Assembly (NCBI GenBank): GCA_044869275.1
Contig: JBIOXB010000050.1
Span: 1 to 50,990 of the forward strand
Direction of reading: 5' to 3'
Length of the DNA stretch: 50,990 nucleotides
Source of the DNA: a bacterium
GTDB lineage: Bacteria; Zhuqueibacterota; Zhuqueibacteria; Zhuqueibacterales; Zhuqueibacteraceae
The notes beneath the pieces are model-generated. The model saw only the letters and a program-made list of their open reading frames with translations, ran no database searches and was not told where the DNA came from. Shown piece after piece: positions 3,766 through 50,990 of the stretch (the stretch's first letter is position 1; the number at the start of each line of letters is the position of its first letter). Both the position numbers and the translations under genes were made by a program.

Positions 3766-3788
3766 GTGGAATTGATCTGCAACAAAGC

Positions 3789-36000: not shown

Positions 36001-36175
36001 TCTCCGGCGCGCTTCCCGGCCAGGAGGCCGTGACCGACAGTTTGGGAAAATCCACCTCGGGCGCGAGCTCCAGCGGCAGATGCCAGGCCTGATAAAGACC
36101 TGTTGCCGCGGCGGCCATCATGAACATGGCGACAGCGACCGGACGGCGGATGAGTCTGCGCAGCAAGGATTGCAT
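33023..36175 (-). CDS. RND efflux transporter permease (AcrB/CusA superfamily)
   Basis: PLELAPEVDFP, VTSPIE, GILVDNAIVVVENI, GIVVNNAIIMVD, RLRPILMTSLTT. Confidence 0.93.
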   Translation of the reverse strand: MQSLLRRLIRRPVAVAMFMMAAAATGLYQAWHLPLELAPEVDFPKLSVTASWPGSAPENVEAFVTSPIEAVAHTLPHVRKASSESFEGRMRVAIEFNRRAEMDFITLELGEKLSNLARELPFGVSTPQIEAYIPKEFQTEGFLSYQLAGDLPPHALRTFALEKLRGPLLSLNGIAAVEVLGGEERELHILVDRARLETYALTLAEVQQALVSAQLRRPVGRLVNAAQQVDLVLESFEETIDRLAQLPLTKNGITLTLNQIATLQFQIVPPLTVTRIDGKPAVMLRILRQPGTNSLQVADAVCQKIETLKGTFPGDLRLLNAQDETARLRTDLRDLFVRSCVSLLVVLSVLLLFLRSWRASGIVIATVFLAVLLALNLFGMAGLGLNLLTLAGFALGIGILVDNAIVVVENIARLRAGEGERGRLGERETGGQGEWESKSNSIDGQDDIEIAARGTAEVGVAILASTLTAVVAFIPFLYLAGELREYYQSFALAVCASLAASLLVAFALTPTLAARLSSRKEVLKKRASPRNPPASVFPTAPFLRLPFHLAYQRLLVTILRFRWLTLLLALGLFGGSLYVFLKKVTRGSPWKWGEETHIVAWVQLPTGAQLERADAIARFFEERIVNQPQVDRVFTQVSAENVTLRLSFTEAARTSLSPLLLKEQLTLLATRIAGVGIGISGFGPGFATGVDNVSQQFPLRVLGYSYAEVKKFAEEIGRVLSRHPRVSRVNTSGTGWYTNDTGFETVLAIDRQKLRGYGLTVQSTLAQLGAYLREDFTRQEMQVHGEPMIYRVKFSDFERLELQSLFTLTLRGEEGQQVHLREIAHLEERPAQSSIARENQQYQRWITFEFRGPWKLARRFAESIAKHTLLPPGYRLEQPQWGRENEGVERELWKVIALSLLLIFMVTAALFESYQQPFIIMTAVPLALIGVFAVFWMTDQPFDRSAYIGVVLLGGIVVNNAIIMVDHINQLRERGLEKHAAIIAGASHRLRPILMTSLTTIAGLLPMVIAADKTGLWYALALATIGGISSAAILGLLVTPAIYAVISGRD

Positions 36176-36257
36176 GCTTCAACGATTGTTACCGGGTGGG
36201 CGGGAGCCTGGCCTGAGCCGGTGCTTCAGAGGAAGCGCTGCTTCGCGCAATCCGGTT

Positions 36258-36719
36258 TCATTCGAGCGCAACCTGAACGACCGCCAAGTCTGTTCTGTTG
36301 GAAATTTCCTCCATTCCCGGCCATTCGTTTGTCTGCATGGCCAGATGGAACCAATTTTCTATTTCCTGGTGCCCATCATTTTTTACCATAAAGAGCACAA
36401 CCGCGAAACCCTTGCCGGAAACACCCCGTTCGGAAATCGTCTCCGTCCAATTGGAGGCGTTTCGGGCAATCTCTTTTTGCGGCCACAGCAACCGGCCGAT
36501 TTTAATCGCAAGCCAGACGTGATGATTTTCAGAAATTCCCCGCAATTCCCCGCTGACCGTGAATGTGGTGGGTACAATGCCGTTTTCCCGGGGGGAGAGA
36601 ATGTCGCCACTGGGATAAAAAGGAATTAGAGCAGCAATCACCGTGGCCACAGTTCCAATGATCGCGGTGATCAGCGCAATTCCTCCGATTGTTTTCCAGA
36701 GCGATTTATTCTGCACCAT
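36258..36719 (-). CDS. Hypothetical membrane-anchored protein with a beta-rich soluble domain
   Basis: N-terminal TM, ILSPRENGIV..TFTVSG Ig-like start; overlaps the formyltransferase end. Confidence 0.6.
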   Translation of the reverse strand: MVQNKSLWKTIGGIALITAIIGTVATVIAALIPFYPSGDILSPRENGIVPTTFTVSGELRGISENHHVWLAIKIGRLLWPQKEIARNASNWTETISERGVSGKGFAVVLFMVKNDGHQEIENWFHLAMQTNEWPGMEEISNRTDLAVVQVALE

Positions 36720-37593
36720 TCGGGCACTTGCCTTCTTTTGACCGTGCTGCACTGGATTCGCAATCCCTTGGGGTTGATCGAGCAGGAATGCCTACGGGGG
36801 CATACTTCAGCAATTCCAAGTAACCGTTTCTTAACCTGAGCATGCGTTTAGCTGCATCAAAACGATCGTGAAATTTGAATTCAAATAGAAAAAACATTTG
36901 GTTTTGAAAATTGCAGACCAGGGGATATTGCCCGCGAAAGGCGCGTGAAACCCTGAGCACCTCCGCATGAGATGAAGCTTCATCAATCACAAAGTCCATC
37001 ACGTTCAATCTTGGATAATACCTGGCTTTGCTTTCATCCTGCGGGGAAAAGCTCAGTTCATGCAACTGCAGTTTTTCCCAAAATGCTCCGACCGCCCTTT
37101 TCCCGGCGCGGGCCGCTTTGAAGAACAACGTGCGATTGTCGTCATTTGGTTCTATTCCAAAACTGGCCTGTACGCAGATTGGCCCCGCGTCAAAATTTTG
37201 ATCGATGCGATGCAGGGTCACTCCTCCTTGAGTTTCATCATGCAGCAGTTGCTGCATGACGGGTTCCGGCCCTCGATACTTTGGCAATAGGGAAGCATGG
37301 ATATTGACGATGGGACAGGAGGTGGAATCGATGAAGCTCGGCGGTATCTTGTGCGGCCATCCCGCCATCAGGATTGCATCCAATTCTTTATCTGCAAAAA
37401 CTGCATAACTTTCTTTTGACGAATAAAGGCACACAAACGCAGTTTGGAATAACTCTGCAAACTTATATCCGCTGGCGGAATCGGCGACCATGATGAGATC
37501 CAGTGCACAGTTTTTCAGAAGGCTTGGATCTTGGAGAAAAACTGCTCCCCAGGGTCCAGAAGCTATAAATCCTATCCTATTCAATTTTACCAA
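36706..37593 (-). CDS. N10-formyl-THF-dependent formyltransferase (Fmt-like)
   Basis: VNIHASLLPKYRGPEP and GVTLHRIDQNFDAGPI; RBS AGGAGG before TTG. Confidence 0.88.
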   Translation of the reverse strand: MVKLNRIGFIASGPWGAVFLQDPSLLKNCALDLIMVADSASGYKFAELFQTAFVCLYSSKESYAVFADKELDAILMAGWPHKIPPSFIDSTSCPIVNIHASLLPKYRGPEPVMQQLLHDETQGGVTLHRIDQNFDAGPICVQASFGIEPNDDNRTLFFKAARAGKRAVGAFWEKLQLHELSFSPQDESKARYYPRLNVMDFVIDEASSHAEVLRVSRAFRGQYPLVCNFQNQMFFLFEFKFHDRFDAAKRMLRLRNGYLELLKYAPVGIPARSTPRDCESSAARSKEGKCPNGAE

Positions 37594-37711
37594 CCCTCCT
37601 GAATCTGCAGCGATTTTTTTTTCTCAGGGTATTCATCAGAACCAAATTTTGCGAAATTAAGCCTAATCCGCGTCATCCGTGGTCAAGGGAGCGTGAGACA
37701 AGAATGCAGGA

Positions 37712-39946
37712 CTATATGCCAGCCCGATCATCAAATTCCTCGGCTATCATATGTCCTTTTAAAAGCCGGCCGTTCAGAATCTTTTTATACGACCTGGAGG
37801 CATGGCGCAACGATCGCAGAAGCGGAATAGCATGACCTTGCCAACTGGTCAGCGGGAGCCTCATGCACCATGCAACCAGGGGCGAAACAAACCAAAGCGC
37901 GAGAACGGGGCTTGCCGCGGGTAATGCCTCCGGCCGCAGAAATGCCAAGCAACTCAACGTTCCGAGCGAGATGGCCGGAGCGGCCCACATCGATTTGTAA
38001 GTGCTCCACAAATCCACCGGGGCAATGTTTTCGCTGTCTTCCGCAGTGGTCCATTCCAACAAGCGCTGGTGTGTAAAAAATCTTCGCCAAACCGCAGACA
38101 AAATCGTCTGCAAGCTGAAGACGGCATCGTAAGGCAAGCTAACCATCCAAAACCCCAGCTTGCCGGCCTCCCTGGCAAACGATTGCAGGGCAGCATGAAG
38201 TTGGTCAGCTCGACGTTGTGGGCTGGGCTTGCGGAGCAAATCCATTATTAACTTCAGAACCAGCGGAAATCCGTTTATGCCTGCCAAAAATACGCTGCCC
38301 AGCCACGCCGGCCACCAGAACATCCAGCTCATGATCAGAAACAGTGTGGTTCCAAGTTGAAGAAGACTGCGCCTAAGATTATCAATAATCTTCCAGCGCG
38401 AAAGCAGCGTGATCGGATTTTTGTGCAGCACATCTTGAGGGCCGCGAACATGCGGCAGCAACCAGCAGGCATTCTGCCAATCCCCCCTGATCCATCGGCG
38501 CCGGCGCGCCGCTTCTGCGGCGTAACTCGAGGGATACTGCTCAAAGAAAATAATGTCACTCACCAGCCCGGAGCGCGCATAAAAACCTTCGAGATGATCA
38601 TGGCTGATCACGCGATTCTCAGGGATGCGCCCTTTCATGCACTTTATGAATATGTCGAGATCATAAATCCCCTTGCCCACAAAAGTGCCGTTGTCGAACA
38701 AATCCTGATAGACGTCAGCAGCTATTGACGATCGGGAGTCAATGGGCGGTTCACTCCAATAGAGTTCCGTAAAGATCGACCTTTGCGCTCCGCTTGCCGG
38801 TTTCGCAATCATTCGTGGCTGGAGAATCCCATAGCCTTCTCGCACGCATTTTTGTTCGTCATCAAACTCCGGTGCATTGAGCGGATGTGCCATGGTCGCG
38901 ATCAGAGGTCGTATGGCATCGCGCGGCAGTTCGGTGTCGGCATCGACGGTGACCACATACCTGATGCTCTGAAGAATCGAGGTGTCGCCAACGATCAGAG
39001 AAAAGCAATGCGAAGTCCCGGCGCGCAACAGTGAATGCAGCTCGGCGAGCTTCCCACGTTTGCGTTCGTGCCCCATCCACAGTTTTTCGTGGTGATTCCA
39101 TCGGCGCGGCCGGTGAAAGAGGAAAAAAATGGGATTTTTTCCTCGCCTATACTTTTGATTCAGCGCAACGATGCCATTTTGTGCTTGCCGGAGAAGCAGT
39201 TCGTCCCGCGGATTGATTTCCTGCTTGGAGTCACAGAAATCAGTCAGCAAAGAAAAATAAATATTCGGATCGTTGTTCCGCAAATAATGGGTTTCGAGGG
39301 CTGCCAGCAAATCATGAACCACCTGGGGATTACTCAGAAAGCACGGCACAGTGACGAGCGTCCGCATGGCGGGTGGAACACCGGCAGAAAAATCCATGCG
39401 GGGAAGCCGCCGCGGAGGTGCGAGAAACGCAACCAGCCAGTTGGCAACCAAAACCGCGAATTGACTTGCACAAAGCAGTGACGAAGCCGCAGCGAGGGCG
39501 AAAGACCACACACGCAACTGCTCAGAATGAGACAAGATCAAAATAGCCGCGGCGAGACCGGCAGTCATCACCGTGATAAATCCGAGATACAAAAAGATTG
39601 CTCCTCGCTTCACCATCGTCTGAAGCATTCGAGCGGCAGATTTCTCCGCATGCGCCGCCCGTTCTAGCCCAGCGTATCCTTGGCCCATCAGGTAAAAGCC
39701 AACATGCGCCGCACGGTCGTTCTTACCCTTGACGGCAGCGGCTTCCGCTGCCAATTTTACCGCCAGCCGGGCAATCTCGCCCTCCCAGTACGGGCTCCGT
39801 CCCGAGATCGCATGAACCGCATCGCCATAGAGCGCGCGTGTGTGGGCGTCCATGTCAGCATAAACACCGCCTGGATCCCGGCTGAGAATCTGCTCGACGA
39901 CTTTATGGGTTTCGGCAAGCGCGGGTTCCCTCTTGCCGGAAGACAT
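37712..39946 (-). CDS. Stand-alone NdvB/Cgs-type (GT84-like) glycosyltransferase module with TM helices
   Basis: RDPGGVYADMD, LPRMDFSAGVP, WMGHERKRGKL, TVDADT, GYGILQPR, FVGKGIYD, SHDHLEG, RRRRWIRGDWQ; about 744 aa, no downstream cyclase or phosphorylase domains. Start 39946 or 39961. Confidence 0.85.
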   Translation of the reverse strand: MSSGKREPALAETHKVVEQILSRDPGGVYADMDAHTRALYGDAVHAISGRSPYWEGEIARLAVKLAAEAAAVKGKNDRAAHVGFYLMGQGYAGLERAAHAEKSAARMLQTMVKRGAIFLYLGFITVMTAGLAAAILILSHSEQLRVWSFALAAASSLLCASQFAVLVANWLVAFLAPPRRLPRMDFSAGVPPAMRTLVTVPCFLSNPQVVHDLLAALETHYLRNNDPNIYFSLLTDFCDSKQEINPRDELLLRQAQNGIVALNQKYRRGKNPIFFLFHRPRRWNHHEKLWMGHERKRGKLAELHSLLRAGTSHCFSLIVGDTSILQSIRYVVTVDADTELPRDAIRPLIATMAHPLNAPEFDDEQKCVREGYGILQPRMIAKPASGAQRSIFTELYWSEPPIDSRSSIAADVYQDLFDNGTFVGKGIYDLDIFIKCMKGRIPENRVISHDHLEGFYARSGLVSDIIFFEQYPSSYAAEAARRRRWIRGDWQNACWLLPHVRGPQDVLHKNPITLLSRWKIIDNLRRSLLQLGTTLFLIMSWMFWWPAWLGSVFLAGINGFPLVLKLIMDLLRKPSPQRRADQLHAALQSFAREAGKLGFWMVSLPYDAVFSLQTILSAVWRRFFTHQRLLEWTTAEDSENIAPVDLWSTYKSMWAAPAISLGTLSCLAFLRPEALPAASPVLALWFVSPLVAWCMRLPLTSWQGHAIPLLRSLRHASRSYKKILNGRLLKGHMIAEEFDDRAGI

Positions 39947-39987
39947 CTGGCTTCTTTCCATACTCTTTTGCAAAGGCCCATTTTGCG

Positions 39988-41052
39988 TTAATTCGTGCCC
40001 ACCAATCCTCTGAGCGTTGTTGCACAGTGCTCTTCCTGATCGGAGATGGTCATCAGTCTTTTGGAAATACGAGGCAAGATCTCTTCCGCATTCTGCTTGC
40101 CTGCTTTCACCAGCATGTTTCTGACCACCACCCAATGTTCACATATTTCATTGAGCTGACTGGAGCAGTTTTCCAATCGCTTCTCTTGCAAAGCAGCCGC
40201 CGCGCCATGCAAGAAAGTCGAGAACCATTTTCTTTGGGTCGCCAAGGTCTGCAGTTGCATGGGGTCGAGAATTTGCGCGAGGCCTGCCTTTGGATCGCCG
40301 CCGCTTTGGTGGCTCCAGGAAAGCAGGTCTTGAGCCAATGCTCTTATACCGCTGATGCCGGCAAAAATGCCGGCATAATGATTGTTGTCCAGCATGATAT
40401 CCGTTGCCATTCTTAGAATTCTTTGCAGGGTTGATTCATGATATGGAGCCGGCGTTTCGGGGAACTGAAATTCGTAAACCGTATTGCCGGCGGAGTGCAA
40501 AGCATGCAAAAAGTCCGGCAAGCCTACGTCCTTTTCAACAAATTCGATCATGAACGTGTTTTTAACGAAGACATGTTCATACTCTATCAATTTGGTGGTG
40601 CTGTTTTTGCGGTCCAGGCCTATGAGTATGCACATATGAAAAAAATGCGAGTACATAAAGTTGTAGCGGTAATGAGGCAGGTAATATTGATCCAACATCA
40701 CGAGCAAAGGCTCATTTTGGGCGAGCCTTTGTTCCAGCTGTTCCTGAACAGAATGGCCGGAGTTCATATGTTTTGCCCGCATGTTGATCTGGTCGATTTC
40801 ACGGAGATGGCGCTCAAAATGCGTGAAACAATGCACCGCTGGCACAGGCACGGCTTTTTGCTCCCGGTGCGAGACGGGATTGCTTCTATAATAGAAATCG
40901 TACTCTTTACACATCACGAGATCCAAATTCTCGTACCCATGGTAACGCAGAATCCCTCCGATTGAAGAAAACGTACAGTGATACGGCACGATCGCGTTCC
41001 CGCTCTTGGCCGGGACGTAGGGAAGGCATTTATTGAGGTCGATAGTGCTCAT
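39988..41052 (-). CDS. BtrH N-terminal-domain protein (papain-like fold, putative ACP-dependent acyltransferase)
   Basis: YHCTFSS (Cys), PLLVMLDQYYLPHY, HFFHMCILIGLD (His), GISGIRALAQDL helical C-domain; RBS GGAGG. Confidence 0.75.
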   Translation of the reverse strand: MSTIDLNKCLPYVPAKSGNAIVPYHCTFSSIGGILRYHGYENLDLVMCKEYDFYYRSNPVSHREQKAVPVPAVHCFTHFERHLREIDQINMRAKHMNSGHSVQEQLEQRLAQNEPLLVMLDQYYLPHYRYNFMYSHFFHMCILIGLDRKNSTTKLIEYEHVFVKNTFMIEFVEKDVGLPDFLHALHSAGNTVYEFQFPETPAPYHESTLQRILRMATDIMLDNNHYAGIFAGISGIRALAQDLLSWSHQSGGDPKAGLAQILDPMQLQTLATQRKWFSTFLHGAAAALQEKRLENCSSQLNEICEHWVVVRNMLVKAGKQNAEEILPRISKRLMTISDQEEHCATTLRGLVGTN

Positions 41053-41053
41053 G

Positions 41054-41671
41054 TTATCCCCCTCCCCTCGCGCCCTGCATGGTCAAGCAAAAGATATGCA
41101 TGGAGGGGTTATCAGGAAATTCAATCTGGCGTAGTCCTCTTTGCTCATTTAATTCGATCTTTTGCATCCACAAATGCGGCTTGATTCTTGTTTTCCTGAA
41201 CCCGGGAATTTCAAAATATGAAACATCACCCTCCGGCGTGTGATAATGGCTGCATGCCAGGGCAGGGGCATCGTTGAAAAAGGAATCTTGACAGAAGAAT
41301 TCGCTCAAAGCGAGTTCCCTTTTTTCTGGGATGCCATCTGCATAATGCAAGGTTAGGGTGTCTTTAAAGCTTCCATTCTCTGACGCGCCAATCACAAAAA
41401 TGCGCGCATAGCACCTCGGCGGAACGGCCACGCAGTTTCCGCACAAAGCGAGATTATTACCCTTGCCGTCGCTTTTGTCTGGGAACCAAAAGGGCACGTG
41501 CTCATGCTCAAAGATAGATTCGGATTCAGGTAATTCTTCGGCCGGAAAGGTTTTCTCCCAGGAGTCGAAGTCCCCGTCCCCGCGATTGGCATCATAAGAG
41601 ATGCCATCATTGTTGAAGAATCCCGACAGATCGATAATTTCAAAGTGCCGGGCGTTCCTCCGAAGTGGCAT
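41054..41671 (-). CDS. Hypothetical beta-sandwich protein resembling accessory domains of glycoside hydrolases
   Basis: IDLSGFFNNDGIS...GDFD...FPAEELP...VPFWFP...NNLAL.G...LHYADG...IEFPDNPSMHIFCLT. Confidence 0.6.
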   Translation of the reverse strand: MPLRRNARHFEIIDLSGFFNNDGISYDANRGDGDFDSWEKTFPAEELPESESIFEHEHVPFWFPDKSDGKGNNLALCGNCVAVPPRCYARIFVIGASENGSFKDTLTLHYADGIPEKRELALSEFFCQDSFFNDAPALACSHYHTPEGDVSYFEIPGFRKTRIKPHLWMQKIELNEQRGLRQIEFPDNPSMHIFCLTMQGARGGG

Positions 41672-41963
41672 TGGGTATGCAGCTCTCTGCTTTTTTGCTC
41701 GAAAGACCGGAACCGCTTTTCCTCAAGTTCTCTATTTCTTCGACCAGATGTGTCAGGCTATTGACCTCGGCAAGGGTAATATCGTCCCTGAAACGGATCT
41801 GGAATTCCTCTTCAATAGCTGCAATAAAACTCATGAGCGCGAGGCTGTCCAGATCGAAGAGTTCCGTCACGCTTTGGTTGAGATCCGTCAAAGCGCGAAC
41901 ATGGCCGTCATTGCATTTACCCGGCGCAATTTCCAGGAGCTTTGCAAGAATTTTCTGATCCAT
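41640..41963 (-). CDS. Acyl carrier protein
   Basis: LFDLDSLALMSFIAAIEEEFQIRF: phosphopantetheine Ser in a DSL motif. Confidence 0.85.
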   Translation of the reverse strand: MDQKILAKLLEIAPGKCNDGHVRALTDLNQSVTELFDLDSLALMSFIAAIEEEFQIRFRDDITLAEVNSLTHLVEEIENLRKSGSGLSSKKAESCIPNATSEERPAL

Positions 41964-41969
41964 ATGCGG

Positions 41970-42443
41970 TTACCGGGAGAAGATCGAATCAACGGCCGCT
42001 TCGAATGCTGCGATATTATGATTCTCATAGACCGAGAATGAAGTTCGCTCGTCATTGAGATCGTGGCGTTCGACAATAATGGGGCTCTTGCGATTCTCAT
42101 AAACTTGTAACGCTTCATTGGGAATCGTCACCATCCGGAGGGCAGGGCCGAAAGCAATGTTCTTGAAGTAGTTTTCATAGATCAGCGCGTTGGTGAATAC
42201 CAATGTTCTGTCCAAATTTTTGTGATACCAATAATTGGCCAGAAACTGGTTGCAGAAACCACAGCCCTGTGAGGTCAGGATCACATAGAATCTCGCGCTG
42301 TCGGATTGACTCGTGATGAGCTTGATTTCGGCGGAGGTGAGCCCAGGTTCAGGCATGGGCGTGGAGGAACGAGAACACCCGCCCAGGAAGCCCGCGAGGC
42401 ACAACCCCACAATGAGCCAACGGTTCCGGTCTGGTCGCATCAT
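41970..42443 (-). CDS. Lipoprotein with a thioredoxin-like CxxC motif
   Basis: Lipobox LGGC; FYVILTSQGCGFCNQF; later KSPIIV (candidate cis-Pro). Confidence 0.65.
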   Translation of the reverse strand: MMRPDRNRWLIVGLCLAGFLGGCSRSSTPMPEPGLTSAEIKLITSQSDSARFYVILTSQGCGFCNQFLANYWYHKNLDRTLVFTNALIYENYFKNIAFGPALRMVTIPNEALQVYENRKSPIIVERHDLNDERTSFSVYENHNIAAFEAAVDSIFSR

Positions 42444-42466
42444 TCTGCCTTTTCGACATGAAGAAA

Positions 42467-43552
42467 CTATTCTGGCTCCAAAGAGACAATTCTCCATCCG
42501 GTAAGCGTTCTTTGGATGTCGTTCGCCTCGTCTTCATCGCTTTCGCTCACAAAATAGACGTGCTCAGCATCATTGCACCGCACGTTCGAGCCTAGTTTTT
42601 CACGCATGGCATAATTCAAAGTGATGGTGTCGAGGGCGTTGAGTTGCAAATCAAAAATAAAAAGCTTTGTCGTCCGGGTCTGTTCATCCGTTCTTCCATC
42701 TTCGATTTCTGCAACAATAAATTTGCCGAGTATGTGCAATCCACAAACACGGCTGTTGTTAAACAAGTACTCTTTCATCTCCTCAAAGGTGGCGGCAGAA
42801 CTAAAATCTAAATTCTTCTTTTCAACCTTAAACTCTGAATCCCTGATCAAACAAGACTGCTCTTCAAAGTTTTTGAGGTTCATGAGGTGTATGGTGTTTT
42901 CAGCCGGGCTGGCATAGAAAACGACGTCTCCCCGGCTTGCCAAGCCTCCGGAACCTGCATAGAACATCAGCATATCATGCTGAGAATTTCTCAACCCAAA
43001 TGTTCGCACCATTGACTTTTTGCCCACATCATAAACAGCAATAAAGTGAGCTCTCCGCCCGCCAGCCAAATACAGGACAAACCTATTGTCAAAATAAATG
43101 AAATTGCTTATCGCTTCTGAGAATCCAGTGATTTCCTTGAGGGGGAGTCCGTTTTCTTGATAAAGAATGAACTTTACAGCATTTTCATCCCACACAAAAA
43201 TTGTGTCGCCACGAGATTTTATCTTGTGGGGAGATCCGTATTCATAGGGCCCTTGACCCCACCGGCCCAAAGTATCAATTTGACGGCCCTTCTCATTATA
43301 TAACACCAAATTGGCGGGTTGGATGCTTGAGACCACGAATTTATTCTGCCCGACTGGTGCGACACTTGCTATGTGGCTCAATTTTCTCAAGTTTTCTTCC
43401 AAGTCTACTCTTTTTGCTTCCACCAGCGCCAGCGTTTGATGACTGCCAACCAATTTAGTTTGTGCAAAGGCGAGCGCCTGCATGAATAATACCATCGAAA
43501 TCGTGAACCTATCTGTGCACAGTCTTATACGAAGAAAGTTCAGCATAAACAT
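42467..43552 (-). CDS. Exported 6-bladed beta-propeller protein
   Basis: Signal peptide; LYNEKGRQIDTLGRWGQGPYEY, DTIFVWD repeats. Confidence 0.8.
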   Translation of the reverse strand: MFMLNFLRIRLCTDRFTISMVLFMQALAFAQTKLVGSHQTLALVEAKRVDLEENLRKLSHIASVAPVGQNKFVVSSIQPANLVLYNEKGRQIDTLGRWGQGPYEYGSPHKIKSRGDTIFVWDENAVKFILYQENGLPLKEITGFSEAISNFIYFDNRFVLYLAGGRRAHFIAVYDVGKKSMVRTFGLRNSQHDMLMFYAGSGGLASRGDVVFYASPAENTIHLMNLKNFEEQSCLIRDSEFKVEKKNLDFSSAATFEEMKEYLFNNSRVCGLHILGKFIVAEIEDGRTDEQTRTTKLFIFDLQLNALDTITLNYAMREKLGSNVRCNDAEHVYFVSESDEDEANDIQRTLTGWRIVSLEPE

Positions 43553-43616
43553 TTTTCCATGGCGAATGATGCAGCAATTTGCAAGGGTCTGAATAAACGT
43601 CGAAGGTGATAACTTC

Positions 43617-43718
43617 TACTACAACGTTAAGTTCACATTTTTGCACCAAAAACTGCACTGTCATCCCGAAGCATCGGGATGACAAGTCTAGTGGTGGCGT
43701 TGACTTAACGTTGTAGTA
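43617..43718. mobile_element. MITE-like element: perfect terminal inverted repeats around a REP-like hairpin
   Basis: TACTACAACGTTAAGT (43617-43632) / ACTTAACGTTGTAGTA (43703-43718); inner TGTCATCCCGA-AGCA-TCGGGATGACA (43659-43684). Confidence 0.7.
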
Positions 43719-43769
43719 CTACTATCCACCTTTGATGGTTTGGCTTTGGCCCTTTTGCTTTCGCAGTCG

Positions 43770-43925
43770 TCAGAAGCAAGGATAGCAAGGGCGAGGACCT
43801 CCATTCACGCACATCCAAAAACCATCGGAGTAGACAAAGATATGCCACACATCGTGTGCGCACGAAGGACCTTCGTGCAAATAAACCATGTTTTTTGAAG
43901 GAATGGGCTTCATCACTTTTTTCAT
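43770..43925 (-). CDS. Cys/Trp-rich precursor peptide 3 (51 aa): MKKVMKPIPSKNMVYLHEGPSCAHDVWHIFVYSDGFWMCVNGGPRPCYPCF
   Basis: Manually translated, absent from the ORF track; RBS AAGGAGG; homologous to the two upstream peptides. Confidence 0.9.
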   Translation of the reverse strand: MKKVMKPIPSKNMVYLHEGPSCAHDVWHIFVYSDGFWMCVNGGPRPCYPCF

Positions 43926-43949
43926 GGTTTTCCTCCTTGAGCCACAGGA

Positions 43950-44123
43950 TTAGCAACGGCCGATGGCGGCAACGCATGGAGCACATATCCATTGGCCGCT
44001 TGAGACGCACCTCCACGCACCAGTGCTATTGATTTCCATGTGCCAAATCGGGGCGCAACACCAAGGGCCTTCATACAGATGAAGTTCGCTCTTTAAGCGT
44101 GTGGGTTTGATCGTTTTTTTCAT
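43950..44123 (-). CDS. Cys/Trp-rich precursor peptide 2 (57 aa): MKKTIKPTRLKSELHLYEGPWCCAPIWHMEINSTGAWRCVSSGQWICAPCVAAIGRC
   Basis: Manually translated, absent from the ORF track; RBS GGAG; same leader and Cys spacing as its neighbours. Confidence 0.9.
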   Translation of the reverse strand: MKKTIKPTRLKSELHLYEGPWCCAPIWHMEINSTGAWRCVSSGQWICAPCVAAIGRC

Positions 44124-44156
44124 GGCTTTTCTCCGTAGGATGGGTGAAGCTGTTGA

Positions 44157-44327
44157 TCAAACGGGACAGCATCCCTTGCACACTTGAATTCCTCCAGTTA
44201 CACAAGTCCAGCTGCCGTCTGGAAAGTGTTGCACATACCATAGATGAGTACAACACCAAACACCGCTGCTAAATTCATAAAGATATAGTTTCTCTCCAGA
44301 ACGGATGCTTTTGATCGTTTTCTTCAT
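44157..44327 (-). CDS. Cys/Trp-rich precursor peptide 1 (56 aa): MKKTIKSIRSGEKLYLYEFSSGVWCCTHLWYVQHFPDGSWTCVTGGIQVCKGCCPV
   Basis: RBS GGAGGA before ATG 44327; paralog of peptides 2 and 3. Confidence 0.9.
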   Translation of the reverse strand: MKKTIKSIRSGEKLYLYEFSSGVWCCTHLWYVQHFPDGSWTCVTGGIQVCKGCCPV

Positions 44328-44387
44328 GGGTATTCCTCCAGTTGATGCAATAAACCGCATAAGCCAATGTCCAGAGACAGTTCGTCA

Positions 44388-44753
44388 CTATTCGAGCACG
44401 ATCACTGAATGATAGCCCTCATACGGAGGCGGAATCTTTTTCTTTCTGGGGTTGAGCGGATCGTTGATCCAGTCTTTGCCATTGATAAAAAACCTGTACT
44501 CCAAAGTCTTATGCGGATTCAATATCGTCATCACCCATACCGAATCATGGTTTTCCATCGGTGCCATCAGCCAGCTGCCATTGGCATCGGAGCCAAATTC
44601 GACTTTTTCGTAGTTGTTATTTCTAAGCCGGAATTCCACGATTTCGTCCGTCACCTTGACTGATTTCGGCACCTGGCTGTTTTCCTTTCGAAGACAGGAG
44701 CTTTGAACACAAATCAGCAACCCCAGCAGAAGGCAACGGTAGCGGGTTTTCAT
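44388..44753 (-). CDS. Lipoprotein with a CBM48/AMPK-glycogen-binding-like domain
   Basis: Lipobox-like QSSC; VEFGSDANGSW..PM....VW....LEYRFFINGKDWINDPLNP. Confidence 0.75.
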   Translation of the reverse strand: MKTRYRCLLLGLLICVQSSCLRKENSQVPKSVKVTDEIVEFRLRNNNYEKVEFGSDANGSWLMAPMENHDSVWVMTILNPHKTLEYRFFINGKDWINDPLNPRKKKIPPPYEGYHSVIVLE

Positions 44754-44764
44754 ATGATTCCCCA

Positions 44765-46495
44765 TCACGACGCTGCAAGCAAGCGATCCACCGTATTGGA
44801 AACGACTTTTTCAAAATCTCGTTTGGTGGCGTTGTCAAAGCACACCGTCTGAAAGACAGGCTGCCCGGTTTTTGCGGCAACATATTGCGAAATGCGCTGC
44901 ACGAGTTCTTCCGGATCGGAAGGGTTGGTCATCAGTATGGTTTTGTCCGGCAAGGCGGCCGTAAAAAAATGCTCCGAAAAAATGCAACCATAGTAATAAG
45001 GATCGGGACTCATCACACCGCTTTGCGCGCCGGCGATGATAACGTCATATTGCCCTTTATCCATTTCCGAGAGCACTCGGCGCAAGAGAGGGATATGAAA
45101 ATCCAACGGCATTTGCAGCGAGTTCATGGCACCGTATCCGGAGGGAAATGTGAATTCCACGCCGAAACATCCGCAGTGATGCTCAGTGCCAATCTGCCCA
45201 ACGCGGTGTCCCCTTTTCTGGAATTCATGTCGCAATGCCAATTGCATGGTGAACTTGCCTTGTTGTGCGCTGGTGCCAAAGACACCCAGCACCGGCGTAT
45301 CAAAGGCCTTCTTCTCCGGAACGCTTTTCAAAATCTTGATCGCATCCACATGGGTTATTTTTGGAATTTCAAGCCATAACCCCGCCGATTCGAATCTATT
45401 CCGCCACTCCTCCTCCTCGCACGGCGGCAGAAACGAGAATACATTGACATGATGGTTGACGGCATATTCCAAAGCCTCTCGCAGCAGGTCTTTTCGTTGC
45501 GCCGCGCTGGCTTGGTCCAAATAACCCACAAGTAAAGTATCGATACCTTGTGAATCCTCGGGCAGGCCGTGTTGCACCTCGAGGGTTGCGTCACAATTCT
45601 CCAGGACTTGATCGGTGCGCTTGCCGCAGTGCTGGCTCAGCTTGAAGTCGGCAATCCACCCAATTTCATATGGCAACTTATTTCTGAAACGCACAAAGCT
45701 GTGCATTTCCTTGTAAAAGGGATAGAGGCCGGCTTTTTTTATTTTGCGATAAAAGTCATTCCACGGCAGCACGGGCGAAGGATTCAAATCGATCTCACGC
45801 TTGAAAGCTGCGCGCATTTGCAGGAACGAGAGCATCGCAGAGAACTGCTTCGAGATATTCCTGCCAAGCAATTGCTCTGCGAGTGTGCGCGTACAAAGCG
45901 CAGTCGCAAAACTGGACCCTCCGAGGAATACTTGTGAGCCGTTCTTCCACCTTACCCGTTGCCTCGAGCCTCGAAAGATGAAATGGTGTTTTTTGTTCTG
46001 TTCCCATCCCCATTCCGTTTGGTTCTTGTGCGCGCCGCTTTTGACGCTGATCACACCCTCGAAGTTGGCCGGGTAGGTGGTGTAATCTTCATCATTCCAG
46101 GCACACACGAGCACGATCCCCTTTGCAACCGCAAGCTTCACGACTTCTTGCAGTTGGTATTTCGCTTCCGGATCGATCGTACCTATCGAGCAATTCAGTA
46201 GATCGATCTCATCCTGCAAGACGCAGTGCAATGCGCGTCGCAGCTTGGGGATCTCGACATGGGCTTCCCGATCGAAGGCCTTGTAAATGAACAAGCGTAT
46301 CTCTTCGGGAGTAAAGTTGCGCGTAATCAAATCTGCACAGGCCGTGCCGTGACCGATTTGGTCCTCGTATGCCGCCGTGGCCATCGCTCCGGTTTCGACA
46401 TGAATGCCCTTTTCCACAAAGCGCATCAAGCGTTGATCCTGAGTATCTATGCCACTGTCAATAATTCCGATTCTAAGCGGCATATGTGCGCGCAT
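44765..46495 (-). CDS. S8 subtilase fused to a DUF1611/TIGR04066-like P-loop domain (putative peptide maturase)
   Basis: Triad IIDSGI / DQIGHGTAC / GGSSFATA, oxyanion CAWND; C-terminal PVLGVFGTSAQQGKFTMQLALR...GQIGTE...IIAGAQSG; RBS AGGAG before ATG 46495. Confidence 0.8.
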   Translation of the reverse strand: MRAHMPLRIGIIDSGIDTQDQRLMRFVEKGIHVETGAMATAAYEDQIGHGTACADLITRNFTPEEIRLFIYKAFDREAHVEIPKLRRALHCVLQDEIDLLNCSIGTIDPEAKYQLQEVVKLAVAKGIVLVCAWNDEDYTTYPANFEGVISVKSGAHKNQTEWGWEQNKKHHFIFRGSRQRVRWKNGSQVFLGGSSFATALCTRTLAEQLLGRNISKQFSAMLSFLQMRAAFKREIDLNPSPVLPWNDFYRKIKKAGLYPFYKEMHSFVRFRNKLPYEIGWIADFKLSQHCGKRTDQVLENCDATLEVQHGLPEDSQGIDTLLVGYLDQASAAQRKDLLREALEYAVNHHVNVFSFLPPCEEEEWRNRFESAGLWLEIPKITHVDAIKILKSVPEKKAFDTPVLGVFGTSAQQGKFTMQLALRHEFQKRGHRVGQIGTEHHCGCFGVEFTFPSGYGAMNSLQMPLDFHIPLLRRVLSEMDKGQYDVIIAGAQSGVMSPDPYYYGCIFSEHFFTAALPDKTILMTNPSDPEELVQRISQYVAAKTGQPVFQTVCFDNATKRDFEKVVSNTVDRLLAAS

Positions 46496-48089
46496 CGCCT
46501 GGCTCCTGGATATACCGTTCGCACCGCATGTCGTCCGGAGGACGCGACTCAAATAGATATTCTCCGTGCTCGATCATAATTGATTTCCGGGCATTCAACC
46601 AGGCGAGCAGGCCCGCTTTGATCTGCGCTTTGAGGGTGAGATCGAGAGAATTAAAGCCCTCATCGACAACAAGCAGGCGCGGATTTTTGACCACCGCACT
46701 GACGAGCACCGCGGCTTGTTTTTGACCCCGCGAGATGGCTTCGGAATGCTCCGAGATGAGCGTCGAGAATCCACTCGGAAAAGCCGACATGAGCGCTTCC
46801 AGCCTTTGCGCCCGCAGCAACTGGAGGACTTCCTGCGCGGAAACCTCGCGCCCGGCGATGATGCGAATATTGTCAAGCAGCGTTCCCGGAAATACCATCG
46901 GGTCCGACGGAATCAAAAACCATTTTTCATTCACCACTTTGCCGCTCAAATCGTCAAATCCGGACAATATCTGCGAGAAAGTGGTCTTGCCCGCACCGTT
47001 TTCCGCGGTAAGATGAAAGAGGAATTTATCCGTTCGAGGCAGCAGAATGCCGCTTTTCAAGGTGCCGTTGAAAAATGGATGGTTGGTTCTGTCGGTTAAT
47101 GGATCAGTCGTCGCCTGCTCCGGGGATTCGAAAGCCAGCATCTCGTGAATTCTAAGGGTCGCAACGCGGTCTATTTTTGCGGATACTGCTGTTTGCCCCA
47201 ATCCCATCGCTATTTGGCTGGCCCGCCCGGCATACATGATCAACGCGAACACCTTTCCCGCCGTAAACGTGCCCGAGCGGTGATCAAAGCGTATGATGCA
47301 CAAAACGGCAATCGTACCCACCAGCAAATTGGCGAGGGCCAGCGCTTGATTTATTTTTTGCGCCTGATGTGCAAATTGGACTTGTTCCTGTTCCATTTGT
47401 TCCGCCAGGCGCCGGAAGTTTTGGAGATGAAAGGGCAACAATCCCCAGGAGAAAGTCAACGCTGGTTGTTGCATGCCCTGTTGAAAAGTTTGCATGAAAG
47501 AAGATCCCAGAGCTCGGAGCGTTGCCGCGCGCGCATTCAAGTAATTGTTCCCGAGATAGGTTATGGCGAAGACCAGCGGCAGGTAAACCATCAGGAGCAC
47601 CCCGACGTGCCAAGACATATAATGCAAAATTGCCAAAGTGCCAAAGAGCAGCACACTTTGAAAAATCACGCTGTGAGACAAATCAATGACGAAGGATTTG
47701 ACTGAGTACACATCTTGCGTAAGACGCGTCAAAACGTCGTTGGGATAGAATTTTTTCCAAAAGCTGCGCCTTTGAGTCAGAGCAGAATGATAGACGGACG
47801 AGATCACGTCGATCATCAAACTTTCGCTCACCCAGGCCGCTAAAATAGTGTAACACCAGGAGAATCCGATGGTGAGCAATACCAATCCCCCAAAAGCAGC
47901 CATTCCCCAAGCAAAAATCCTCCCTGTCTCAAGGCCGATGATCGCATCGATCGTTCTTTGGAATTGTATGGGGATGAGTAATTGGCACGCCAGCAATAAC
48001 CCCAGGATGAGAAACAGAATAAGTTCTTGCTTCCAAAACTTTTTCCAAAAGGGAAAGATGAATTCAATTATGGTCCTGAAATCAGACAT
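46473..48089 (-). CDS. ABC exporter (fused TMD-NBD), no C39 peptidase domain
   Basis: Six TM, DVLTRLTQDV, Walker A-like AENGAGKTT, signature ISRGQKQ, Walker B LVVDEG, H-loop IEH. Confidence 0.88.
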   Translation of the reverse strand: MSDFRTIIEFIFPFWKKFWKQELILFLILGLLLACQLLIPIQFQRTIDAIIGLETGRIFAWGMAAFGGLVLLTIGFSWCYTILAAWVSESLMIDVISSVYHSALTQRRSFWKKFYPNDVLTRLTQDVYSVKSFVIDLSHSVIFQSVLLFGTLAILHYMSWHVGVLLMVYLPLVFAITYLGNNYLNARAATLRALGSSFMQTFQQGMQQPALTFSWGLLPFHLQNFRRLAEQMEQEQVQFAHQAQKINQALALANLLVGTIAVLCIIRFDHRSGTFTAGKVFALIMYAGRASQIAMGLGQTAVSAKIDRVATLRIHEMLAFESPEQATTDPLTDRTNHPFFNGTLKSGILLPRTDKFLFHLTAENGAGKTTFSQILSGFDDLSGKVVNEKWFLIPSDPMVFPGTLLDNIRIIAGREVSAQEVLQLLRAQRLEALMSAFPSGFSTLISEHSEAISRGQKQAAVLVSAVVKNPRLLVVDEGFNSLDLTLKAQIKAGLLAWLNARKSIMIEHGEYLFESRPPDDMRCERYIQEPGDARTYAA

Positions 48090-48146
48090 GGACGTTGACT
48101 TGAGCCTGCGGCCTGCATCTTGCCAATATGTTTTGTGTCTGCTTCT

Positions 48147-48411
48147 TCAATACCTGTACCACAGTTTTGTGGATTGTTCGAGTCGGCGCCGGATTCTTTC
48201 AAATCAGACAATTATGTTTGCCTGCAGTTGGAATTTCGAGCGCGCTGCAACAGCGCCGCGAATTGGATTTTGCACTGCCCGGCAGCGCAGTTTTCTACAA
48301 GTCAAATCAAAATAAAGGCAACTCTGCTGCTGCAAAATGTATTATCCGACGCGGCCTCTGCAATTTAATCTCTGGAAAACCAAGAGGATGGGTTGCTGGT
48401 GCAAAATGCAC
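48147..48411 (-). promoter_or_regulatory. sigma54-type promoter region of the peptide cluster (-24/-12, IHF site, enhancer repeats)
   Basis: Minus TGGTAC-AGGTA-TTGA (48147-48161); IHF consensus AATCAG-ACAA-TTA (48202-48214); TGCAAAAT repeats at 48263-48275 (rc), 48331-48341 and palindrome GTGCAAAATGCAC 48399-48411. Confidence 0.6.
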
Positions 48412-48422
48412 AGTCCCCCATC

Positions 48423-49349
48423 TTAAAGCTTATATTGAACCATTTTGCGCTTGAGAGTGCTGCGGTCGATATGCAAAATTCTGCTTGCGTGTGTCAAGTT
48501 GTTCCTGGTTTCTTCCAAAACCGCCGCAATATGCCGACGCTCGAGCTCTTCCAGGCTCCAGCACTGTGTTTTGGCTTTGGATAATAGCGTCTCGCAGCGC
48601 AGGTCCAAATCAAAATCTTGTGGCAGTAACTCTGAGTTCTTGCAGTTGACCAAAGCCTTGACGATGGCGTTTATCAGCTCGCGCACGTTGCCGAGCCAGG
48701 AATGATGGAGAAGCAGTTCGTGCGCCGCTGGAGTAAAGTGCGCAGTTTTGCCCAGCTTTGCGCTGTAAACTTTCAGGTAATGCTCAGCCAGCGGCAAAAT
48801 GTCTTCCTTGCGTTCACGCAGAGAGGGAATAGTAACGCTGAATTGATCCAGGCGAAAATATAGATCACGGCGGAAATCGCCTTTTTCAACAAGCTCGCGC
48901 AGATTTGCGTTCGTGGCGGCAATCAAACGAAACCTTGAGCACAATTCTTGCCGCCCGCCCAGACGGCGGAATAGGCCACCGCTTTCTACGACGTGCAAAT
49001 AATTAGTTTGTACTTCCAGGCTCAGGTTTTGAATCTCATCCAGGAAAAGCGTGCCCCCATTTGCCTGTTCGAGCAAGCCGATTTGTTGCACGCTGGCGCT
49101 GGTAAAGGCACCTTTTTCATGGCCGAAAAGCATGCTTTCGACTATGTTTTGCGGCGTGGCGCCCACATCCAACATCACAAAGGCGCCGGCCCTTTGCGCG
49201 CTCGCGCCATGAATGTGGCGCGCGATCAAGGTTTTGCCGGTACCGGTTTCGCCATAAAGGAGAATGCTAATCGAGGTTGGAGCGACCTCCCGGAGCTTGT
49301 GCAGAACTTCCTGCATGGCGCGGCTTTTGTAAAGAATCGTGGCTTCCAT
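48423..49349 (-). CDS. sigma54-dependent Fis-family enhancer-binding protein lacking an N-terminal sensory domain
   Basis: GETGTGKT, ESMLFGHEKGAFTSA, GGTLFLDEI, RLIAATN, FRRDLYFRL, WLGNVREL, C-terminal Fis HTH. Confidence 0.92.
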   Translation of the reverse strand: MEATILYKSRAMQEVLHKLREVAPTSISILLYGETGTGKTLIARHIHGASAQRAGAFVMLDVGATPQNIVESMLFGHEKGAFTSASVQQIGLLEQANGGTLFLDEIQNLSLEVQTNYLHVVESGGLFRRLGGRQELCSRFRLIAATNANLRELVEKGDFRRDLYFRLDQFSVTIPSLRERKEDILPLAEHYLKVYSAKLGKTAHFTPAAHELLLHHSWLGNVRELINAIVKALVNCKNSELLPQDFDLDLRCETLLSKAKTQCWSLEELERRHIAAVLEETRNNLTHASRILHIDRSTLKRKMVQYKL

Positions 49350-49553
49350 ACCAGTTTCCGTGAATGATCGGGTTCATGATGAGGTGCGCTTGCTTCGGCA
49401 AGGCGAAAGTGATTGGGTGAAGGGGAGAGAGGGAGAAAAGGAGAAAGAGGCGTGATGAGGTTGCAGAGTTTCTCGTAACTAAGGAGGATGTCGCTGGGAT
49501 TCACCATCTTCCCATACCCCAAAATTTAAAGCTCTGTCCCTCCAAATTGCGAG

Positions 49554-49589
49554 CGGCCACAAAATAGAATTTTGTTGTGGCCGAGTCAA
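49554..49589 (-). promoter_or_regulatory. sigma70-type promoter with an overlapping inverted-repeat operator upstream of the sigma54 activator
   Basis: Minus TTGACT-N17-TATTTT; inverted repeat CGGCCACAA-N12-TTGTGGCCG. Confidence 0.6.
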
Positions 49590-49884
49590 GTACTTTCTTC
49601 AGTGCGGCCGTGTTTTTAGACGGTTGCACGAGGCGATTTTCGAGGCGAAGAGTGGATTTGTGGTGAGAATTCGTAATTTTTTTATTCGGGGCCAGTCTTC
49701 GATTCAAAGTCATGAGAGGCAGGCTTTCATGCTTTAGCTAAATTCCGTGAAACTCATCTCAACGCACTAGGGGCGCAAAAAGTCCAGCACAATTCGATCA
49801 CTACTCGAAACCTGGGTGACATCGCTTGCCAGAGCGATTTTCTTTTGACCGACGTCAGCGTTTATGGCTAAATCGGGAGGGCGT

Positions 49885-50990
49885 TTGTATAAAAGAGTCT
49901 ATCTCGCCATTTCATTGTTGCTCGCCGGCGGCTTGCTGGCTGCCTGGTTTGTTCTCACTTCCTCGCCCCACTCGGATTCCGGCGAAACAAATGATGTTCC
50001 CGACCTCGGCGTGGAAGCCCCTATTTCCGTCAAGGCCATGCACGCGCGGCGGGGCACGCTGGTGTTGCGCTTGACCGCCAATGGGTATACCAAAGCCAAT
50101 CGTCAAATCCCACTGGCGGCACAAGTCGCCGGCGTGGCGGATTCGCTAACAATTTATGAAGGCAAAGCCGTCCGCCCGCATGAACTGTTATTGCGGCTCA
50201 ACGATGCGGATTACAATCTCGCCGTGTCGGAAGCGCAGGAGCAGCTCAATCAGGCCATGATCACATACGGCCAGCAACGTGCCGAGCGCATCATTGCGAA
50301 CGTGCGTATCGATACGCTGCAAGGCTATTACCTCGATCTCCGCCGCACGGAAAGAGCCTACGCGCAGGCGCAGCGCGATCATGCCGGCGGCAAAATCTCG
50401 GAACAGGAGCTATTCTTGTTGAAGAGCGAGCACGAAGCTGCAAAGCTTTTTGCGGAAGAAGGCAAACAAATCCTCATCGCTTCGCGCACCGGCCTTACCA
50501 AAGCCATGATCAGCCTGCAGCGCGCGCAGCTCAATCTTGCGCGCACCCGTATCATCGCGCCCTGCCATGGCATGATCGCCAACCTCAAAATTGCCCTCGG
50601 ACAGCCCATTAGCGCCGGCATGGAATGCTTCACCCTGGTGAATCTCGATACGATTCTCGTTGCAGCTGAGGTTCTGGAAAGTGAAGCGCCACTCGTGCAC
50701 ATGGGACGCCGCGCCGCCGTGACGTTTTCAGCTTTTCCCGGGCAAGTTTTTGAAGGCAGAATCGTCGCCATCAATCCGCTCGTGGACCTTGAAAGACGCG
50801 TGCGGCGGACCGTGGTCGCCATTGCGAACAAAGATCACACACTGCTTCCGGGGCTTTATGGGCAAGTCAAGATTGAGTCTCAATTCCTCCAGGATCGCTT
50901 GATTGTGCCGAAAGAGGCGATTGTGGTGCGTGATCACAGGAAGGTGGTGTTTATCGTGAGATCGGAAGGAGTGGGGGAGAGGGGGACGGG
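49885..50990 (+). CDS. RND efflux periplasmic adaptor (membrane fusion protein), runs off the window
   Basis: Not in the ORF track; TTG after GGAGG (or ATG 49864). TM, AAQVAGVADSLTIYEGKAV, helical hairpin, IIAPCHGMI, FEGRIVAINP, LLPGLY, LIVPKEAIV. Confidence 0.88.
   Translation, partial: MYKRVYLAISLLLAGGLLAAWFVLTSSPHSDSGETNDVPDLGVEAPISVKAMHARRGTLVLRLTANGYTKANRQIPLAAQVAGVADSLTIYEGKAVRPHELLLRLNDADYNLAVSEAQEQLNQAMITYGQQRAERIIANVRIDTLQGYYLDLRRTERAYAQAQRDHAGGKISEQELFLLKSEHEAAKLFAEEGKQILIASRTGLTKAMISLQRAQLNLARTRIIAPCHGMIANLKIALGQPISAGMECFTLVNLDTILVAAEVLESEAPLVHMGRRAAVTFSAFPGQVFEGRIVAINPLVDLERRVRRTVVAIANKDHTLLPGLYGQVKIESQFLQDRLIVPKEAIVVRDHRKVVFIVRSEGVGERGT

Follow-up and report, generated by a model that had tools for sequence, protein, structure and literature searches.

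What do three short reading frames, lying one behind the other close to a protease gene in a bacterium of the family Zhuqueibacteraceae, encode, and what becomes of their products? The frames occupy positions 43770-44327 of contig JBIOXB010000050.1 (assembly GCA_044869275.1), positions 1 to 50,990 of which, the whole stretch analysed here, are referred to as the window. An initial annotation took these open reading frames (ORFs) for precursors of a family of peptides that are made ribosomally and then modified post-translationally (RiPPs), with a conserved leader that would be removed by the S8 (subtilase) protease of the same cluster. Based upon sequence comparison, we consider it probable that they are leader-tagged, translated precursors of one biosynthetic and export operon, the products of which would be cut in the cytoplasm, possibly acylated, exported and closed by disulfides.

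Three tandem precursor genes

The three genes are transcribed in the same direction, the first of them being that with the highest coordinates:

44157-44327, minus strand: precursor A, 56 aa from its MKK start, leader (residues 1-18) MKKTIKSIRSGEKLYLYE, Shine-Dalgarno (SD) site GGAGG at 44335-44339
43950-44123, minus strand: precursor B, 57 aa, leader ending in LHLYE, SD site GGAG at 44131-44134
43770-43925, minus strand: precursor C, 51 aa, leader ending in VYLHE, SD site AGGAGG at 43932-43937

In each case the leader comprises 18 hydrophilic residues, which open with a Lys-rich MKKxIK[PS] start and close with an [LV][YH]L[YH]E box. The cores that follow are 38 aa long with six Cys and three Trp (A), 39 aa with six Cys and four Trp (B), and 33 aa with four Cys and two Trp (C); they contain one, no and no Lys, respectively. 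Alignment of the three peptides leaves 16 invariant columns, which in the numbering of precursor A are M1, K2, K3, K6, L16, E18, G22, C25, W30, G38, W40, C42, V43, G46, C50 and C53.

What the initial annotation described was recovered exactly on reanalysis. The shared MKK(T/V)(I/M)K start appears in the alignment as MKKxxK common to all three peptides, the L-(Y/H)-E motif occupies residues 16-18 in 3/3, and the proposed core spacing, written as G..C....W.......G.W.CV..G...C..C, fits 3/3 as well. Every ATG is preceded, 7-8 nt upstream, by an SD site, in agreement with the claim that each gene has its own ribosome-binding site. It is also correct that two of the precursors are hidden below the ORF cutoff; at 60 aa these are B and C only, because ORF A measures 67 aa when read from an upstream ATG at 44360. 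The stated lack of a Sec signal agrees with the low hydrophobicity of all three leaders, the maximal 9-aa Kyte-Doolittle mean within the first 22 residues being at most 0.37. The further claim that there is no double-Gly site is true of the leader/core junction in 3/3 peptides and does not extend to the relatives described below, several of which do show GG or GGG right after YLYE.

A profile built from the three peptides and run against the 6.67-Mb genome matched these three only (E 1e-30 to 2e-32), the next match having an E value of 0.59. Comparison of the paralogues gave proportions of synonymous differences (pS) of 0.63-0.88, which is saturated, and of nonsynonymous differences (pN) of 0.26-0.45, that is a pN/pS of approximately 0.4-0.55, and for 10 of the 16 invariant residues more than one codon is used. 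A codon pattern of this kind marks ancient duplications that selection has preserved at the protein level, and by it the three ORFs behave as real genes. Diverged copies were found on low-depth contigs of another metagenome (run X3). Among the changes listed there, the core of precursor A carries nine nonsynonymous and two synonymous ones with all Cys and Trp intact; both of the changes listed for the lipoprotein gene beside the precursors are synonymous.

Outside this genome the core appears to be rare. Among A, B and C, only C (P0001) exists as a called protein in public protein libraries, and no peptide homologue was found in the 60 relatives searched. When the profile was run over a library of 1.84 billion representative proteins, it recovered precursor C itself and one outside core homologue, P0007, a 104-aa singleton (E 9e-4) which has the same core spacing and is situated on a 791-nt contig without context. 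Five further matches in the representative library were long repeat proteins and were set aside. The three precursors and 12 relatives were also compared with NCBIfam at E values up to 10, and apart from one noise hit no match was obtained, TIGR04065 included.

Leader box and S8-DUF1611 maturase

Upstream of the precursors lie the genes for the presumed processing protease and for an exporter:

44765-46552, minus strand: fusion of an S8 subtilase with a DUF1611_C/TIGR04066-like P-loop domain (Pfam, NCBIfam and alignment), referred to as S8-DUF1611
46473-48089, minus strand: ATP-binding cassette (ABC) exporter of 538 aa in which permease and ATPase are joined, showing the Pfam domains ABC_membrane and ABC_tran only and no C39 domain

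The start of the S8-DUF1611 gene is uncertain, the candidates being TTG at 46552 and ATG at 46495 or 46483. Its product was identified as possessing Peptidase_S8 [PF00082; 38.2 bits, cut-off 21.8], and the catalytic motifs are kept in the alignment: IDSGID with the Asp, GHGTA with the His and GGSSFA with the Ser. The nearest relatives of the S8 half in the PDB are intracellular serine proteases (subtilisins), and CylA [9ekq_A] is matched at E 8.8e-17. We read the enzyme as cytoplasmic, no signal peptide being seen at its N-terminus. Against NCBIfam the S8 half is closest to QhpE, with 110 bits (cut-off 165). For DUF1611 [PF07755, cut-off 25] the whole protein scores 24.8 bits and its C-terminal half alone 26.7 bits; the counterpart at locus L020, one of two Bacteroidota loci discussed below, reaches 61.2 bits. 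The C-terminal half contains homology to TIGR04066 as well [81 bits, E 8e-23, cut-off 200], which places it outside the equivalog, and the protein has a P-loop-like GTSxxQGKFT sequence. DgcN, a DUF1611 protein, is an acetyltransferase. Complex prediction from the S8-DUF1611 and precursor alignments gave a score of 0.03 (mark 0.32) and was used neither way. In another genome of the window's phylum (L104/L107, G538:C288:17061-18706) the S8 half and the DUF1611 half are encoded by separate, neighbouring frames, which would be either a split form or a frameshift.

The initial annotation had made its case depend upon homologous peptides beside homologous maturases, and such peptides are indeed present. 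Close loci were collected by a one-genome-per-species scan, in which the S8-DUF1611 homologues share 43-67% identity with that of the window and come from Ignavibacteriaceae, Melioribacteraceae and Bacteroidetes metagenome-assembled genomes (MAGs); to these are added L020 and L021, from two Bacteroidota genomes, with an S8-DUF1611 of 35% identity. Leader-box ORFs occur in 6/7 of these loci of other genomes. The [LIVF][YH]L[YH]E leader is carried by small Cys-containing ORFs in L007, L008, L009, L011 (two copies), L020 and L021, the seventh locus, L010, stopping before the expected precursor position. In L007, L008, L009 and L011 these ORFs adjoin the S8-DUF1611 gene directly and their leaders also start with MKK. 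One more leader-box peptide, P0011, was obtained by protein search. The combination of a conserved leader and a variable core, which the initial annotation had seen in three paralogues, thus holds over a wider set: the leader box is found in 11/11 peptides and the cores are unrelated between loci. The leader is 17-19 residues long in nine peptides and 23 in two. Approximately six independent core types are represented, and the number of core Cys is even in 11/11 of these YLYE-type peptides. We regard the leader as a new leader family.

At L020 and L021 the precursors are of 127 and 137 aa and carry KVYLYES. Both loci also encode a PapB/CcpM-like radical S-adenosylmethionine (SAM)/SPASM enzyme, an acyl carrier protein (ACP) and an ANT(6)-like nucleotidyltransferase. 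Judged by sequence alone, an ABC protein of 687 aa found there would be a putative C39-type exporter and the adjacent ORF of 368-370 aa a putative HlyD-like protein. The nucleotidyltransferase, which resembles aminoglycoside 6-adenylyltransferases, follows the ACP directly (L020 8278-9126, L021 11464-12330), and between the radical SAM and S8-DUF1611 genes there is one for a conserved secreted protein of 522 aa that belongs to no known family.

A metagenome scan yielded 193 S8-DUF1611 relatives, of which 80 loci were kept. The strict YLYE leader pattern was present in 0/80 of them; Cys-rich ORFs with a looser MKK..K[PK]...LY..E were present in 18/80. Radical SAM genes accompany approximately a third of the metagenome loci, this and the neighbourhood counts given below being based upon single-sequence phmmer. 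Inspection of L108-L110, loci of the window's own phylum, gave no precursor by regular expression or by eye. At the high-GC metagenome locus L029 an 85-aa ORF (1000-1254) starts MQMRENKVVLAKP...VVAYTSEGC and continues into a Gly-rich hydrophobic stretch; possibly this is a precursor whose leader box is a variant. In one Melioribacteraceae MAG (G062), the source of L008, L009 and L011, the S8-DUF1611 cluster occurs at least three times, as copies or variants on short contigs, the precursors of which differ in core each time, with four Cys in one and six in the other three.

Carrier-protein module and proposed pathway

Downstream of the precursors three consecutive genes, to which the initial annotation made no reference, suggest chemistry that is dependent upon a carrier protein:

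41640-41963, minus strand: ACP [PF00550; 25 bits, cut-off 20.8] with a DS phosphopantetheine motif
41054-41671, minus strand: homologue of AziU2/Azi28, 205 aa [profile vs PDB; 8gs1_A, E 1.2e-28, and 7wuw_A, E 1.5e-28]
39988-41052, minus strand: papain-like transacylase of the BtrH/CtaG/AziU3 kind, with BtrH_N and DUF4872 domains both above the Pfam cut-off

The DS motif of the ACP is invariant in 6/6 aligned cluster ACPs. With regard to TIGR04069, the window ACP fits generic ACP models only, and that of L007 scores 25.5 bits (cut-off 70). The AziU2 match covers 190/199 profile positions; the protein is without a Pfam family, and in a protein atlas it falls into unnamed clusters only. An AlphaFold2 (AF2) model of it, with a predicted local distance difference test (pLDDT) value of 58.5, was left unused because the PDB sequence match was already decisive. 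For the BtrH-like protein a single-sequence search of the PDB found nothing, and a profile matched CtaG [9quz_A, E 4.7e-6] and, weakly, AziU3 [E 0.022]. Cys26, His136 and His139 are invariant in 4/4 BtrH-like sequences. The YxC, HxxH and acidic positions of CtaG can be aligned with those of the window protein, where the acid, judged from alignment only, is Glu.

According to Gude et al. (PMC12865890), CtaG is a papain-like ligase that depends upon a carrier protein and has a Cys-His-Asp triad. The same authors name AziU2/U3 as a structural relative and state that BtrH and AsbE use carrier-bound donors and free acceptors (PMC12865890).

Neighbourhood counts cover 88 S8-DUF1611 loci including that of the window. 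An ACP neighbours S8-DUF1611 in 24 of the 87 others, and AziU2 homologues lie beside it in L029, L032 and L007. In L029 and L032, S8-DUF1611 is followed directly by ACP, AziU2-like and BtrH-like genes in the window's order. L007 also holds an ACP, a BtrH-like gene and MauE, the last being found in L010 too. In L007, which is an Ignavibacteriaceae chromosome, the AziU2-like gene is in two halves (2534-2863 and 4170-4556) split by a Mutator-family transposase (2896-4227), and the cluster is flanked by genes for a Mu-like portal protein and a DDE transposase. AziU2-like domains occur in 7/167 genomes of the window's phylum; outside genome G000 they sit in frames of 1180-1395 aa (G544-G548, G566), where no S8-DUF1611 was detected.

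The remaining elements which bear upon the fate of the peptides are as follows:

44388-44768, minus strand: small lipoprotein (putative) of 126 aa, encoded between S8-DUF1611 and the precursor genes, with no Pfam match above cut-off
42467-43552, minus strand: secreted six-bladed beta-propeller, DUF5128-like [Pfam DUF5128; 26.5 bits, cut-off 22.9]
41970-42497, minus strand: putative lipoprotein with CxxC (CGFC), the CxxC being invariant in 4/4 syntenic proteins of close loci
43617-43721, no strand assigned: dispersed palindromic repeat, 105 nt, directly downstream of precursor C, with 57 matches in the genome

The three proteins in this list have N-termini which look, by eye, like signal or lipoprotein signals, and we take all three to be extracytoplasmic; the CxxC lipoprotein is read as thioredoxin-like. 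Homologues of the small lipoprotein occur in 4/5 close loci (L008, L009, L010 and L011), counterparts of the propeller are found behind the precursors in L007, L008 and L011, and a homologue of the ABC exporter adjoins S8-DUF1611 in L007 (E 2e-131).

Folded as RNA, the repeat reaches -66.7 kcal/mol (z -7.2). A terminator scan located on its minus strand a terminator-like hairpin (43685-43658) with a 12-bp stem, followed by a T run. In four metagenome runs the same repeat turns up between varying flanks on numerous contigs, and it looks like a dispersed repeat of the REP/MITE type (repetitive extragenic palindrome/miniature inverted-repeat transposable element). Its hairpin may increase precursor transcripts relative to those of the enzymes.

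Put together, these genes suggest the following sequence of events. The leader would serve as an address tag for the cytoplasmic S8 protease with its fused DUF1611/TIGR04066-like domain, and the S8 domain would cut it off at or just after Glu18, or after the next Gly. The freed N-terminus could then be acylated with an ACP-carried unit by the CtaG/BtrH-like transacylase and its AziU2-like partner; we place the acylation at the freed alpha-amine because the three cores have no other amine in common. The DUF1611 domain may take part in this, either by loading the ACP or by using it. Export would fall to the C39-less ABC transporter, and outside the cytoplasm the CxxC lipoprotein would oxidise the four or six Cys to two or three disulfides, while the beta-propeller and the small lipoprotein presumably assist in folding, binding or immunity. 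What the operon makes is most likely a family of secreted peptides that diversify and are of bacteriocin or signal type. Within this scheme the capping step, that is, transfer to the N-terminus after cleavage from the cluster's own ACP by a CtaG/BtrH-type ligase and its AziU2-like partner, with DUF1611 handling the ACP, is offered tentatively, and we lean towards doubting it.

Several observations weigh against this pathway. The ACP/AziU2-like/BtrH-like trio was detected at only 4/88 S8-DUF1611 loci (window, L007, L029 and L032), and therefore may be an add-on or serve another product. The cleavage site is placed solely by where conservation ends, and since several relatives have GG or GGG after YLYE a cut further downstream, after Gly, is possible. 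The thioredoxin-like label derives from the CxxC and from non-significant matches (ResA, E 1e-3, with the L007 protein; DsbC, E 0.2, in the PDB). One of the variants listed for run X3 alters Gly38 of precursor A, which is invariant among the three paralogues. The AF2 model of precursor C is poor (four-row alignment, pLDDT 54.5), so that no fold backs the idea of a disulfide mini-domain. Finally, our literature search found no biochemically characterised member of the S8-DUF1611 (TIGR04066-like) plus ACP group. DUF1611 and RiPP were not found together in that search, DUF1611 as a whole word turning up only in unrelated contexts, and nothing relevant joined BtrH, RiPP and ACP.

One might suppose instead that the peptides are leader-cleaved, disulfide-only products of class-II bacteriocin or signal type, that the S8 enzyme only trims them, and that the downstream ACP, AziU2-like, BtrH-like, formyltransferase-like and glycosyltransferase-like genes serve something else. 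The low count of the trio and the terminator-like hairpin between the precursors and the downstream genes both favour such a view, and an even number of Cys (11/11) together with a CxxC partner would suffice for a stable product. SacP23, from a related Bacillota cassette, is moreover active on heterologous expression according to its authors (PMC10731318). We nevertheless regard this explanation as unlikely. ACP genes recur beside S8-DUF1611 (24/87 other loci), and the Bacillota cassette, as outlined in the same source (PMC10731318), also includes an ACP-related protein. The fusion of DUF1611 to the protease itself argues for chemistry beyond cleavage, and in L029 and L032 the trio stands directly behind S8-DUF1611.

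The best NCBIfam match of the S8 half brings to mind quinohemoprotein amine dehydrogenase (QHNDH), in which the leader of the gamma subunit QhpC is cut by the S8 protease QhpE, followed by ABC export and assembly with a beta-propeller subunit. By analogy the peptides would be small subunits or cofactor-bearing partners of a periplasmic complex with the beta-propeller and not free products, a view which is in keeping with the QhpE score of 110 bits, the syntenic C39-less ABC exporter and secreted beta-propeller, MauE in L007 and L010, and the invariant Trp and Cys of the cores. The score is under the curated cut-off of 165, however, and none of the 28 PF04055 (radical SAM) matches in the genome is on the contig. 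Three divergent paralogues and unrelated cores behind one leader fit product diversification better, and the core variants are mostly nonsynonymous among the changes listed. We consider a QhpC-like role quite improbable.

It is scarcely credible that the ORFs do not code for protein, or are frames open by chance within an intergenic segment that is repeated, for although two of them lie below the usual ORF cutoffs and C alone is a called protein in public libraries, the idea is contradicted by the codon-level coding pattern, by the SD site of each ORF and by the leader kept beside homologous maturase genes in other phyla.

Related systems, origin and neighbouring genes

To return to the preferred reading, that of leader-tagged precursors in one operon, the closest described system is the CLI_3235/CcpM cassette of the Bacillota. 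As set out in PMC10731318, this consists of a TIGR04065 precursor, the TIGR04068 radical SAM enzyme CcpM, TIGR04066, the ACP-related TIGR04069, a subtilase and an ABC transporter; SacP23 of Paenibacillus polymyxa is given there with a 19-aa leader and a 42-aa Cys-rich core (PMC10731318). The window cluster shares with it a short leader in front of a Cys-rich core, proteins of the TIGR04066 and ACP types, a subtilase and an ABC transporter. It differs in that the subtilase and the TIGR04066-like domain are in one protein, in that the contig is without a radical SAM gene (L020 and L021 do have one), and in the addition of the AziU2-like and CtaG/BtrH-like pair and of the extracytoplasmic CxxC, propeller and small lipoprotein genes. 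Because the peptides do not match the precursor model, radical SAM is lacking from the contig and the scores are below the curated cut-offs, we view the cluster as a relative, and not a member, of this group.

The BtrH-like and AziU2-like pair resembles CtaG/BtrH/AsbE and AziU3/AziU2 [PDB 9QUZ, 7WUW, 8GS1] in consisting of a BtrH_N plus DUF4872 protein with conserved Cys and His residues and an adjacent AziU2 homologue, accompanied by a carrier protein. The known members belong to non-ribosomal pathways (closthioamide, butirosin, petrobactin and azinomycin), whereas the pair in the window is encoded together with a leader protease and with precursor peptides made on the ribosome, all in one operon. 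With respect to CtaG there is the additional difference, from alignment only, that the acidic triad residue is Glu and not Asp.

The likeness to QhpC/QhpD/QhpE/QhpF is that there, too, a cytoplasmic S8 enzyme trims a small Cys/Trp peptide before ABC export, and that QhpE is the top match; unlike that system the window has a sub-cut-off QhpE score, no QhpD-type radical SAM enzyme in cis, three divergent peptides, and relatives with unrelated cores. LanP proteases of class I lanthipeptides (e.g. CylA) are likewise S8 enzymes dedicated to leader removal from a ribosomal peptide, but the window protease is cytoplasmic by our reading and fused to DUF1611, and the leader motif differs. No LanB, LanC or LanM family was found among the 14 neighbouring proteins scanned. 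Unlike double-glycine bacteriocins with C39-ABC transporters, the window has neither a GG junction nor a C39 domain on its transporter.

Among the S8-DUF1611 peptide-maturation clusters, that of the window represents a branch which is free of radical SAM and in which the carrier-protein ligase module is unexpected. The combination of S8-DUF1611 and ACP genes is widespread, as the 193 relatives in one metagenome scan illustrate, and the window would offer a clean entry point to it, with three defined substrates, a sharply bounded short leader box and an intact enzyme set. Since there is no radical SAM enzyme, any mass shift would report on the DUF1611, ACP and CtaG-like parts. Were ACP-dependent capping true, this would be the first ribosomal-peptide pathway using papain-like, carrier-protein-dependent ligases, a class recognised recently, and the first function for S8-DUF1611; should the capping idea fail, the cluster would still define a leader family and a Trp/Cys-rich peptide scaffold, both of them new.

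S8-DUF1611 is found in 6/167 genomes of the window's phylum and in 3/401 sampled genomes of the phylum of L007; it was not found in G001, a genome of the same genus that is 99% complete. The GC content of the cluster is 46-52% vs 54-59% elsewhere in the window. Low GC together with the host's own repeat, inserted behind precursor C, makes the cluster look imported but resident, and it looks as if horizontally acquired from an Ignavibacteria-like lineage.

All genes from 49349 to approximately 36700 are on the minus strand. Their order is sigma-54 activator, ABC exporter, S8-DUF1611, small lipoprotein, the three precursors, the repeat and the beta-propeller, followed by CxxC lipoprotein, ACP, AziU2-like, BtrH-like, glycosyltransferase-like and formyltransferase-like genes. 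The first of these is:

48423-49349, minus strand: sigma-54 activator with AAA+ and helix-turn-helix domains (Pfam), upstream of the operon, with no sensor or receiver domain

Upstream of the ABC gene, the intergenic region offers one -24/-12-like candidate only, which is weak and has two mismatches (TGGTACAGGTATTGAA, 48146-48161). Over the whole window the sigma-54 promoter pattern occurs at chance level (39 found vs 37.6 expected). An Rfam scan of 36000-50990 returned nothing.

At the other end of the cluster, behind the BtrH-like gene and on the same strand, the region 36706-40135 contains a formyltransferase-like gene and a gene for a membrane protein of 807 aa, the GT2 match of which is weak. 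It is uncertain whether the glycosyltransferase-like and formyltransferase-like genes are cluster members; a formyltransferase homologue lies near S8-DUF1611 in one of the 80 metagenome loci (L087).

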